DNA of 46,428 bases, taken from the IMG/VR virus record IMGVR_UViG_2622736468_000002; one strand, given 5' to 3'. Position numbers: made by a program. This document shows positions 21,001 to 24,000 of this stretch, in pieces. The stretch comes from a virus (lineage: Duplodnaviria > Heunggongvirae > Uroviricota > Caudoviricetes). Numbering within the stretch: the first letter of the stretch is position 1; every line of letters starts with the position of its first letter.

Positions 21001-24000
21001 TGGAGAAAAACATCAGAGTGCCATTGAGTGAACCCCAGAAAGCGGGGATCGCGTCATTCTGTCCGTACAACATTGGCCCCGGTAAGTGTTTTCCGTCGAC
21101 GTTTTATAAACGAATTAATGCAGGTGATCGCAGGGGAGCGTGTGAGGCGATTCGCTGGTGGATTAAGGACGGTGGCAGAGACTGCCGTATTCGTTCAAAC
21201 AACTGCTACGGTCAGGTATCCCGTCGTGACCAGGAGAGCGCGCTGGCGTGCTGGGGTATCGACAGATAAGCAGAATATTTTGCTGAAAAATAAGGTATGG
21301 CCACGCGGGCGGATAACACGAAATCCTGCGAACTGACAAAAACTAAGTGAATAAAAGTAAAAACCCCGTTTGTTGGCTGCAAGCGGGGTTTTGTGTTTCC
21401 TGACTCTGGAAAAGTCAAAGGAGAAAGTGTGTTTGATTTTAGCAAACTGATTCGGGAGATTCGAGTGATGGCTGAAAAATTATCCACCTGGAAGTTCATT
21501 CTTATCTGGCTGGTGTTTGTGATTATGGCCTCCGGTTATTTCATCGGTCAGATACGCTGGTGGTGAAATGAACCGCGTACTGTGCGTGGTCATCATTGCC
21601 CTGCTGGTGGCCTGTGGTGCGCTTAGTCTGGGGCTGAATCATTACCGTGATAACGCCATAACCTACAAAGAGCAGCGCGATAAAAAAGTCAGTGAGCTGG
21701 AGCTGGCAAATGCAACCATTACTGATATGCAGCAGCGCCAGCGTGATGTTGCTGCACTTGATGCCAGATACTCGAGGGAATTAGCCGATGCGAGAGCTGA
21801 AAATGAAACTCTTCGCGCTGACGTTGCCGCTGGTCACCGCAGCCTGCGGATCAACGCCACCTGTCCAGGTCCCGTGCGTGAAGCCACCGGCACCGCCCGC
21901 GTGGATAATGCAACCGGCCCCCAACTGGCAGACACCGTTACACGGGATTATTTCACCCTCAGAGAGCGGCTGATGACGATGCAGAAGCAACTGGAAGGGG
22001 CACAGGACTATATCCGCACTCAGTGCCTGAAATAAGTTTTGCTGATGCGCGGTATTGTCGCCGTATCCCCGCATTAACAGAGACCGCAGCCCGACAGGGA
22101 GACTCCTCTGCGCGAGTGTGCGGGGATAATCAAAAACGATACACACCGGGGTTTACCGCGTTAACGGAGCGCGGCGTTGTCCCCTCATAGTCGCCTGTCC
22201 GGTGCGATGGTGGAAGAAGCCGGATGTTTATCACTATTAATTGATGACACAGAAATGGATTCATTGAATTTCAGCACGTTTTTGTATTCGTGTTATTGAA
22301 CATCTGTTTATTTTACTTTTAACATATTGATAATAAAAAGAGCTGTAAATCTTTAGATGAGTCGATTTTGTCCGGGGAAGTTCAAATGGATTTTATGCTG
22401 ACGGTTTCTGGTGTGGTTATCCTGTCCATTGCTTATACTGCAGATAAATATGGCTGCCATTTGTTATCACGTATTGGCGCTTATTGTTCGTTGATGCTGA
22501 TTTTCTCGTCGCTTTTTTTTGAGTAAGTTATATTAATTATAACAAATAATTTTCTGTGTTATTTTTTCAGGCTATCCCGTCAGAGGGGAAGCCTGTACTG
22601 CCAGGGAGCGAATGGAAAACTGATGTGTCCGGTAACTGCGTGTTCTGTGAACACCATGTTACTTAATTATGTAATTCATACCCGAACTCTCTGTTGACAG
22701 CCTTCTTCTGCAGGCTTCAATAACCCACGCTGAAAAGTTTCCTGAACCTTTCAGATCAAGAGCGATGTTAATTTGTTCAATCATCTGGTTTGGAAATCGG
22801 ATGTTGCGGGTTGTTGTTCTGCGCGTTCTGTTCTTTGATGACATAATGTTTCCCCATATTCAGTGTTGCTGATTTGTATTATCAGAAGTTGCTTTTACGT
22901 TAATTTGACGCAGATCAATTAATACGATACCTGCGTCATAATTGATTATTTCTCGTGGTTTGATGGCGTACACACATGTTGTGATAAACCTTATATAGAT
23001 GATAATCATTATCATTTCGTGGGTCCTTTCCGGCGATCCGACCGGTTACGGGGCGGCGACCTCGCGCGTTTTCACTATTTATGAGATTTTTTGAGGGGGT
23101 GGTTGTTGTTTAATTGTTTGGTATATCTAATTGATAAGTAAGGTGAAAATAAAATAAATACAACAACCTTACGATGTGTTTTGATGTCGTCAATGCGAAA
23201 AATGTCAATGATATCAAATGGTTTTGCAAAAACACATGGTTGTTGTTTCGCTTTTTATCGATGACTTATGGAGAGGAGATGGCCTTTTTATTGAATAAAA
23301 GTGATATGGCCTCCTCCATCGGTATCTCTGTTCAGGCATTTGATAAATGGGGCGTTCCTCCTGTTGAACGTCGGGGGAGGGAAGTTTTATATGACGTTAA
23401 AACTGTACTGGAGATAGATCGCGAGCGGCGACAACACAATCAGAGAACACCTGATGACGGGGGAGAACTGGAGGAAAGGCTGCTTCGGGCCAGAGCTGAA
23501 CTGACAGAAGAACAGGCTGTAGCTCAAAAACTTAAAAATCAGGTAACCGAAGGTAAGCTCATCGATTCAGACTTCTGCGTTTTCGCCCTCAGCAAACTGG
23601 CGATGGCATTGTCCAGTACGCTTGATTCCATTCCGTTATCCATGCAGCGACAGTTCCCGGATTTAACGCCACGTCATATTGACCATCTGAAAACCCTTAT
23701 TGCAAAGGGCGCAAATCAGTGTGCGCGGGCAGGGGATAAATTACCGGATTTGCTGGATGAATATATCAGAGCAACAACTGAATAATATGTTGGCCGCCGT
23801 TTCGGTTGCGCTGCAGCCTCTGGTCAGGGTTGTACCGATGACGGCAGTTGAATGGGCTGACCAGTATTATTATCTGCCGAAAGAATCCTCATACGGTGAC
23901 GGCGAATGGAAAACGCTGCCGTTCCAGATCGCCATCATGAACAGTATGGGGAATGATCAGATCCGCACTGTTAATCTGATTAAATCTGCCCGTGTTGGCT

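Follow-up and report, generated by a model that had tools for sequence, protein, structure and literature searches.

Introduction

In lambdoid phages, Q-modified RNA polymerase reads through intrinsic terminators along the late operon. The P2 LysA, lambda S107 and S21-71 antiholins are accessory membrane proteins of lysis cassettes. Hok, Ldr, Ibs, TisB and ZorO are type I toxins, with Sib as an overlapping antisense RNA, and the type III ToxIN system has the order promoter, RNA, terminator and toxin gene. Another accessory membrane protein of a lysis cassette is Mu releasin gp25, a DUF2730 protein with an N-terminal transmembrane domain that tethers a cytoplasmic domain (PMC9239132). Here, we analyzed a stretch of 46,428 nucleotides (nt) from a Caudoviricetes virus (IMG/VR record IMGVR_UViG_2622736468_000002; the whole stretch is hereafter called the window) and focused on a hairpin and a small open reading frame (the micro-ORF) in the 298-nt gap between the endolysin gene R and the inner-membrane spanin (i-spanin) gene Rz. 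The window represents a lambdoid prophage and has Shiga-toxin (Stx) phages as close relatives. The closest DNA matches of its R-to-Rz interval (21270-21567) were Stx2_95, CP-1639, H-19B and many Stx1a, Stx2a and Stx2c phages, and the interval is 100% identical in Escherichia coli FORC_069.

The micro-ORF product belongs to the catalogued family phrog_6632, whose profile it matched over its full length (E 1.2e-29, residues 1-45 on positions 1-45 of 45), and it is identical or near-identical to RefSeq WP_000459345.1 ('hypothetical protein', 'phage protein'). Neither Pfam nor NCBIfam has a model for phrog_6632, and searches of Pfam, NCBIfam and PADLOC gave no family for the peptide. The peptide was not described in a survey of Stx-phage lysis cassettes (PMC8136144), nor was it among the entries of the Sakai small-gene ribosome-profiling paper and its supplements. 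In the literature covered, which was incomplete so that novelty is unproven, the peptide sequence, the accession, the PHROG and the linkage of hairpin and gene were all without mention. What is new here is that linkage; phrog_6632 and the accessory micro-genes of lambdoid late operons were already known.

Like lambdoid morons, the hairpin with its micro-ORF is a small accessory between late genes that lie side by side or overlap in related phages (DLP12, Qin and SEN34), is found in many late-operon positions and encodes a membrane-type product. Morons differ in having their own sigma-70 promoter upstream, a terminator downstream and expression in the prophage, whereas here the terminator-like element lies upstream, no promoter was predicted between R and the micro-ORF, and Rz follows 1 nt on; the copies at locus L181 do have a promoter. 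HK97 gp15 is reportedly an example of a moron, and such elements are said to have been treated by Juhala et al. in 2000 and Cumby et al. in 2012. Like Mu releasin gp25 and the antiholins, the peptide is a small, putatively membrane-associated protein encoded beside endolysin and spanin genes and could affect endolysin timing. However, it has no sequence kinship with gp25, its layout is reversed (charged N-terminal half, hydrophobic C-terminal half), and its homologues also occur outside lysis cassettes. No Pfam match to holin or antiholin families (S21 Phage_holin_2_1, lambda S and others) was obtained, and PHROGs gave only families of unknown function. As for spanins, three residues follow the hydrophobic segment, and neither a lipobox nor a spanin-family match was found.

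The likeness to type I toxins lies in the size (45 amino acids (aa), a hydrophobic segment of about 20 aa and one predicted helix), in leader-restricted expression as proposed below and in the terminator hairpin upstream, as in Sib; the differences are that no antisense promoter or small RNA (sRNA) was found for the micro-ORF and that the ORF is probably coupled to downstream late genes. ToxIN resembles the locus in that a terminator stands right before the protein gene and would meter read-through, and the L181 copies additionally have a promoter and a long untranslated RNA. Unlike ToxIN, the leader has no tandem antitoxin repeats, and the product is a 45-aa membrane peptide rather than an endoribonuclease.

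Results

Conservation of the hairpin with the micro-ORF

A strong hairpin with a T-rich tail between R and Rz had been reported in an earlier note on this DNA, and our analysis bore this out. The RNA was predicted to fold at -23.4 kcal/mol (z = -3.9 against dinucleotide shuffles; 1 of 200 shuffles was as stable), and the hairpin was the top-ranked site in a terminator scan of 4.5 kb. It has the G+C-rich stem, short loop and 3' U-rich tract of an intrinsic terminator, its 3' tail being TTTTGTGTTT with 8 T in 10 nt. An A tract at about 21351-21363 flanks the hairpin on the 5' side and a T tract at 21389-21398 on the 3' side; on the minus strand, the T tail (GGGGTTTTTACTTTTATT) is equally good, and the shape is thus bidirectional.

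Copies were gathered from unrelated contexts, and the region upstream of each was inspected. The homologues examined amounted to about 25 leaders, which came from Escherichia, Salmonella, Citrobacter, a Pseudomonas phage and metagenomes. In all of them, a GC-rich stem-loop with an A tract on one side and a T tract on the other was present 23-39 nt 5' of the start codon, and this included the copies of SEN34 and the Pseudomonas phage. The energies in the 23 leaders tested (23/23) ranged from -13.8 to -26.3 kcal/mol. When a uniform rule was applied, 17 of the 23 family members had the hairpin on their 5' side, as did 1 of the 120 control ORFs of the same loci. The stem sequence itself varied among leaders (AAAACCCCGTTTG.../...CAAGCGGGGTTTT, CCCCGATTG/CAGTCGGGG, CCCCGAATG/CATTCGGGG, GCCCCGCTGG/CCGGCGGGGC and CCCCCGAGAGC/GCTTCGGGGG). 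In an alignment of 22 leaders, 89% of the cells were paired and 6 of the 14 pairs were altered on both sides; 30 double-change cells were observed in the stem versus 10.7 expected, a value reached in 0 of 500 shuffles. Sliding the partner by 1-3 columns as a control lowered the pairing to 37-60%. G-U outnumbered A-C in the stem (23 vs 14), indicating a weak preference for plus-strand RNA. The hairpin is almost certainly a selected structure linked to the micro-ORF, and the compensatory changes speak against its being a non-functional relic, the outcome that the earlier note had named as its refutation. Because the hairpin stands 5' of every homologue and its stem carries compensatory changes, we concluded that hairpin and micro-ORF form, at the level of sequence, a single conserved unit.

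Terminator-like structures are common in this prophage. The note had placed a terminator-like structure inside the lysis operon outside the lambda paradigm; such a structure is not really unusual here: a simple scan found about ten other plus-strand terminator-like hairpins across the window, and Q-modified polymerase passes such sites. Five of them lie in the late region past the lysis genes (27509, 30434, 38936, 42493 and 43193), and none of these five is followed by a small hydrophobic ORF. A search of 4.5 kb against Rfam (E up to 1) gave no family on the plus strand. On the minus strand (21336-21425), the gammaproteobacterial rimP leader appeared below threshold (29.9 bits, cut-off 47; E 0.058), and we rejected this identity as probably a generic hairpin match.

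The stretch of about 90 nt between the R stop codon and the hairpin (21270-21356) was homologous behind three unrelated endolysin genes, with copies at L008 2860-2935 and in L101, L127 and L143 besides that of the window. It has a conserved GAATAAT/GATAAT box at its 5' edge and a consensus stem of 4 bp only, and it is missing in L019, L129, L144 and SEN34. Since its reading frames vary by lineage, it is judged to be non-coding. A 17-19-aa ORF before the hairpin was rejected, as the frame differs between the E. coli and Salmonella groups, and so was an attenuator-type short upstream ORF across the hairpin, for which neither start nor frame is conserved.

The micro-ORF and its product

The micro-ORF encodes 45 aa (MFDFSKLIREIRVMAEKLSTWKFILIWLVFVIMASGYFIGQIRWW). 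The note had proposed an ORF of 31-44 aa behind an AAGGAG ribosome-binding site; the site and the ORF were confirmed, but the boundaries were not. The start at GTG 21429 is backed by conservation, by the 45/45 match to phrog_6632 and by all homologues, whereas the Shine-Dalgarno (SD) sequence lies 45 nt from the ATG at 21468, and the 32-aa peptide given before is the portion of the 45-aa product that begins at Met14. Divergent homologues have an equivalent SD sequence (AAGGGAG or GGGAGG) at the same spacing. Longer forms, namely a 57-aa extension from GTG 21393 and the 72-aa form annotated in Stx2_EH2201, were rejected as not conserved in frame; across the hairpin, EH2201 and 569R3 have different frames, and in the window a stop interrupts this part.

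Selection on the reading frame was strong. Its ratio of nonsynonymous to synonymous change (dN/dS) was 0.08-0.15 against the copies of Salmonella (L008), Escherichia fergusonii (L012) and Citrobacter braakii (L019), versus 0.7-8.8 in the two alternative frames. Differences from E. fergusonii fell on the three codon positions as 7/1/17, with third positions dominating. The N-terminal motif x-[DN]-[FI]-S-K-L-I-R-E-[IL]-R-x-M-x-E-x-L-x-x-W-K-F followed by about 20 hydrophobic residues is conserved, and the wider family, which ranges from Escherichia to a Pseudomonas phage, keeps SKLIxExRxMxExLxxW[KR]F, the hydrophobic segment, the length and the start position. A divergent A' form still matched phrog_6632 at 1.4e-13. 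These results make it nearly certain that the micro-ORF is a true gene and that purifying selection acts on its protein.

Homologues amounted to 35 clusters of 5.8 billion and, in an exhaustive profile search, to 41 representatives of 1.84 billion. Because all 41 clusters encode proteins of 32-86 aa, the family is small and self-contained and not a fragment of a larger protein. Origin as a truncated holin or spanin was rejected, no longer relative having been found in that search.

AlphaFold modeled the peptide as a single helix (residues 4-44; predicted local distance difference test score 85.8). Residues of about 2-21 are charged and amphipathic, those of about 23-42 are hydrophobic, and the C terminus is RWW. 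The N-terminal half is net positive, and QIRWW alone follows the hydrophobic part; this charge distribution suggests that the N terminus would be inside and the C terminus outside. The note's description of an extra membrane peptide thus agrees with both the selected gene and the single-helix model.

The internal ATG of Met14 was invariant in alignments A2 and A4. The proportion of synonymous change was 0.23-0.5 in codons 2-13 versus 0.67-0.9 in codons 14-45. Met14 is possibly an internal or dual start yielding a 32-aa peptide, or else this part of the gene may be constrained at the RNA level.

The junction with Rz

The micro-ORF ends with TGA (21564-21566), and a single A (21567) precedes the ATG of Rz (21568); the separation is therefore one base. 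The last two Trp codons and the stop supply an SD-like sequence, GGTGGTGA, right before this ATG. The WW-stop-N-ATG junction was identical before two unrelated i-spanin families, Rz (PF03245) and DUF2514, and it also terminated other, unrelated micro-ORF families. From this recurrence, we consider it likely that the micro-ORF and Rz are translationally coupled.

Distribution and genomic contexts

Of 5426 complete E. coli genomes, 871 (about 16%) had the full R-to-Rz interval, as did most of the Stx1, Stx2a and Stx2c phage records retrieved. The label 'unannotated' given to the micro-ORF before was right for most records: no feature was placed at it in 36 of the 40 phage records listed (three carry one, and one record is unannotated throughout) and in 24 of the 30 E. 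coli matches listed. It does not apply to CP-1639, where the micro-ORF is annotated as a hypothetical protein (CAH23245.1), to some RefSeq genomes (WP_000459345.1) or to PHROGs.

In the enteric loci recovered, the form ending in IRWW stood directly before an i-spanin gene in about 125 of about 128 copies with readable downstream sequence. This spanin, one base past the stop, belonged to the Rz family or to the unrelated DUF2514, and the endolysin before the unit was of four unrelated types (lysozymes of 177 aa, as here, and of 162 aa, a GH19 enzyme and a 138-aa enzyme). In a variant with AIKG as its last residues, further single-helix micro-ORFs of families B, C and D came before the spanin, and families C and D had the same hairpin and leader.

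Other copies lay elsewhere. Salmonella phage SEN34 has a copy with the hairpin between the baseplate spike and wedge genes, about 18 kb into a late operon for which it encodes a Q-like antiterminator, and its own endolysin and Rz genes overlap directly without the unit. Pseudomonas phage YMC11/02/R656 has a copy among tail genes, locus L184 after a tail-tip gene and L186 among head genes; L185 has an array of at least three units, and in L181 a copy lies before the terminase gene in a toxin-antitoxin gene island. In DLP12 and Qin of K-12, R overlaps Rz with nothing between, and the same direct overlap is found in lambda; hairpin and peptide are thus outside the lambda arrangement, as had been noted before. 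Because the positions vary and R and Rz overlap without the unit in DLP12 and Qin, the unit behaves as a mobile accessory of late operons.

In the same R-to-Rz gap of other prophages, we also observed other single-helix micro-ORFs, up to four in tandem (L003 612-1175; L004 2157-2485; L005 2183-2335; L006 2078-2641; L012 2736-2888). They belong to family B (phrog_4906) and families C/D (phrog_1115/3246/4493, MxKYKRxxLRL...AFAI...) or are a 50-aa ORF of E. fergusonii, and several terminate with [RK]WW-stop right ahead of the next ATG. In L181, a 300-nt direct repeat (2098-2397 and 2802-3101; 97% identical) containing a strong promoter, TTTACA-17-TATCAT, precedes each of two hairpin and micro-ORF units, and the island is rich in ParE, RelB/YafQ, HicAB and BrnA. 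Tandem hairpin and micro-ORF arrays occur in structural gene clusters of metagenomic phage contigs (L185 2501-2900 and L184 2184-2647), and every ORF in them ends in IRWW-stop. When viral contigs were scanned for exact matches to the Salmonella-type stem pattern, one unrelated locus was the only result.

Discussion

A model for the unit

Here, we propose a model in which the hairpin and the micro-ORF are an accessory cassette inserted in the Q-dependent late operon between the endolysin and i-spanin genes; as a whole, we give it about an even chance of being correct. The hairpin, acting as an intrinsic terminator, would stop ordinary RNA polymerase, so that in the lysogen the peptide, Rz/Rz1 and the distal genes would not be expressed. 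Once the prophage is induced, terminator-resistant polymerase modified by Q would read through, and the peptide would be made strictly late. No sigma-70 promoter with a proper -35 element and spacing was predicted between R and the micro-ORF, and the 36 nt from hairpin to start are too short for one; because of these two points, transcription must pass through the hairpin. Ribosomes that finish the micro-ORF would re-initiate at Rz through GGTGGTGA, which is formed by the WW-stop codons. The peptide would sit in the inner membrane, its N terminus facing the cytoplasm, and may serve as a lytic-phase modulator of the membrane or of lysis rather than as a dedicated partner of the spanins. It might change the energization of the membrane and thereby the triggering of the holin or the signal-arrest-release (SAR) endolysin, or it might exclude superinfecting phages. 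An effect on lysis timing is possible. A general lytic-phase role is more consistent with the scattered locations than a spanin-specific one.

Several points weigh against this model. Termination, read-through, translation and membrane insertion are all inferred from sequence features, and the function of the peptide is a guess, its sole tie to lysis being its most frequent location. The hairpin could equally end minus-strand transcripts, the A tract being as conserved as the T tract. The Fisher p value of 4e-16 for the uniform-rule contrast is inflated, since the 23 leaders share ancestry. Each of the L181 units has its own strong promoter about 350 nt upstream, and expression there may be independent of phage antitermination; the antitermination setting was checked only in the window and SEN34. 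The low synonymous change in codons 2-13 points to an additional RNA-level or internal-start feature outside the model.

Alternative explanations

The surroundings of the unit in enteric phages invite the view that the peptide is a dedicated lysis accessory: a partner or regulator of the spanin or of the pinholin/SAR-endolysin pair, similar to an antiholin, a releasin or a spanin chaperone, with the hairpin setting the stoichiometry of R and the distal genes. The i-spanin gene directly after nearly all readable enteric copies, the frequency of the interval in E. coli genomes and Stx-phage records and the production of a membrane-type helix alongside the lysis proteins fit this well, and Mu releasin gp25, encoded beside endolysin and spanin genes, is a precedent (PMC9239132). 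It is hard to reconcile, however, with the homologues that keep the same hairpin amid baseplate, tail and head genes, with the overlapping endolysin and Rz genes of SEN34, which lack a copy between them, and with cassette partners as varied as four unrelated endolysin types and two unrelated spanin families; the peptide also matched no holin, antiholin or DUF2730 family. We regard this explanation as unlikely, and the suggestion of a spanin accessory or antiholin in the earlier note is not supported, for the same reasons, copies near terminase genes included. In particular, a spanin-specific role is unlikely because copies also lie among baseplate, tail or head genes. A type I toxin-antitoxin-like module, in which a membrane toxin is curbed by RNA, the hairpin ends an antisense or upstream RNA and the leader occludes the SD sequence, would account for a small, hydrophobic, single-helix product and for terminator features on both strands of the hairpin. 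A pyrimidine-rich arm able to pair with the SD sequence (CCTTG...CAAGG and variants) recurs by eye in many leaders, but this second small hairpin folded no better than shuffles (z about 0), and RNAalifold gave no consensus pairs. The L181 unit, which lies amid ParE, RelB, HicAB and BrnA genes and has a strong promoter of its own, some 350 nt of leader and the 300-nt repeat, is suggestive of such a module, and the nucleotide constraint in codons 2-13 could mark an RNA-RNA target. Codons 14-45, in contrast, are near synonymous saturation, so that no overlapping element is conserved there, and neither within nor after the ORF did we find a conserved promoter on the minus strand: the one weak match (21551-21522, minus strand) is not conserved in the Salmonella, E. 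fergusonii and Citrobacter copies, although these scans were crude. Given also that no plus-strand Rfam family and no PADLOC match was obtained and that the ORF is probably coupled in translation to essential late genes, which sets it apart from known type I loci, we think this module distinctly improbable.

The main product might instead be an sRNA or a functional 3' untranslated region of the endolysin mRNA, consisting of 21270-21356 and the hairpin, with the micro-ORF as an independent neighbor. A non-coding stretch kept behind three unrelated endolysins, the conserved box at its 5' edge, a closing hairpin and U tail typical of Hfq-binding sRNAs and the order of strong promoter, 300-nt repeat and hairpin in L181 all suit this idea. 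Many units (L019, L129, L144 and SEN34), on the other hand, retain hairpin and ORF without the stretch, no promoter with a proper -35 and spacing was predicted in this region of the window, the consensus stem has 4 bp only, and no Rfam family was matched; we judge this explanation highly doubtful. It could finally be argued that there is no function at all, the hairpin being a terminator or recombination scar that ends the R module and the ORF being a chance or decaying frame. The R 3' flank with the hairpin (query positions 1-129) was indeed commoner than the ORF (2046 vs 871 genomes), which is consistent with a module boundary, and most annotators skip the ORF. Strong purifying selection on the ORF, a family whose length and motif stay fixed between Escherichia and a Pseudomonas phage, and a hairpin that covaries and keeps a fixed distance to the start in unrelated contexts leave this reading barely credible.

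Returning to the model of a Q-gated cassette, a wider proposal can be attached to it, namely that temperate phages carry in their late operons a so far undescribed class of mobile, terminator-led micro-gene cassettes, of which the unit would be one example. In each, an intrinsic terminator and a short leader would go with a single-helix peptide, often ending in [RK]WW-stop, that re-primes the next gene. The peptides would be antitermination-gated membrane effectors, for example depolarizing lysis accelerators or dual-start effector/inhibitor pairs that begin at Met1 and at Met14, which is invariant. The leader is common to four or more peptide families (A, B, C/D and E), and tandem arrays were seen in L003/L006, L012, L184 and L185. 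Taken jointly, these claims are speculative and unlikely to hold.

The micro-ORF sits in the cassette that releases Shiga toxin, and it is common in E. coli and Stx phages and usually unannotated. Should the peptide influence lysis timing or the integrity of the membrane, it would matter for the release of toxin and for phage burst. Terminator and micro-gene are strictly paired, which suggests a design rule by which toxic small genes are plugged into antiterminated operons, where they would be silent in the lysogen and expressed by Q-modified polymerase alone; this rule could guide the annotation of phage micro-proteins.

Features of the window and neighboring genes

Table 1 Coordinates of the unit and of nearby features in the window
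Feature	Position	Strand	Remarks
Q-like gene	14291-14677	+	upstream of lysis and terminase genes, same strand
Three tRNAs (tRNA-Met/Arg/Arg)	16721-16970	+	late region
nanS-p-type esterase	17459-19420	+	late region
S21-type holin, 71 aa	20121-20336	+	PF04971, 9e-33
DUF1327/YdfR-family ORF, 114 aa	20341-20685	+	PF07041, 2.4e-45; between holin and endolysin
Endolysin R, 177-aa phage lysozyme	20736-21269	+	PF00959, 2.3e-23; phrog_7; N-terminal hydrophobic SAR-like segment
Non-coding stretch, about 90 nt, R stop to hairpin	21270-21356	+	weak GGAT/ATCC stem inside
Intrinsic-terminator-like hairpin	21360-21392	both in shape	stem 21360-21373/21379-21392, 14 bp, 6 G-C; 5-nt loop TGGCT
SD sequence AAGGAG	21418-21423	+	5 nt 5' of GTG start
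Micro-ORF, 45 aa, GTG start	21429-21566	+	phrog_6632 member
Invariant internal ATG (Met14)	21468-21470	+	SD-like GGGAG at 21454-21458, 9 nt upstream
TGG TGG TGA (last two Trp codons and stop)	21558-21566	+	SD-like GGTGGTGA right before Rz ATG
Rz i-spanin, 155 aa	21568-22035	+	PF03245, 6e-48
Rz1 outer-membrane spanin, embedded in Rz	21788-21973	+	PF06085, 1.7e-20

The order of tRNAs and then the nanS-p esterase is as in Stx2_95. The stx genes are absent from the window: about 490 nt separate the last tRNA from the esterase ORF, the site of stx2A/B in Stx2_95. Between the Q-like gene and the tRNAs lies a 237-aa ORF (15980-16693), the C-terminal half of which looks by eye like an AraC-type regulator. 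The DUF1327/YdfR ORF is longer in some related prophages (329 aa in Stx2_95) or truncated and called 'partial' by the annotation pipeline PGAP.

Past Rz, the region 22036-22844 has no convincing ORF for about 620 nt and then a minus-strand ORF of 61 aa (22659-22844). No minus-strand terminator was found between this ORF and the hairpin (21392-21360). In related prophages, the counterpart of its position is annotated as YlcI/YnfO or DUF3950.

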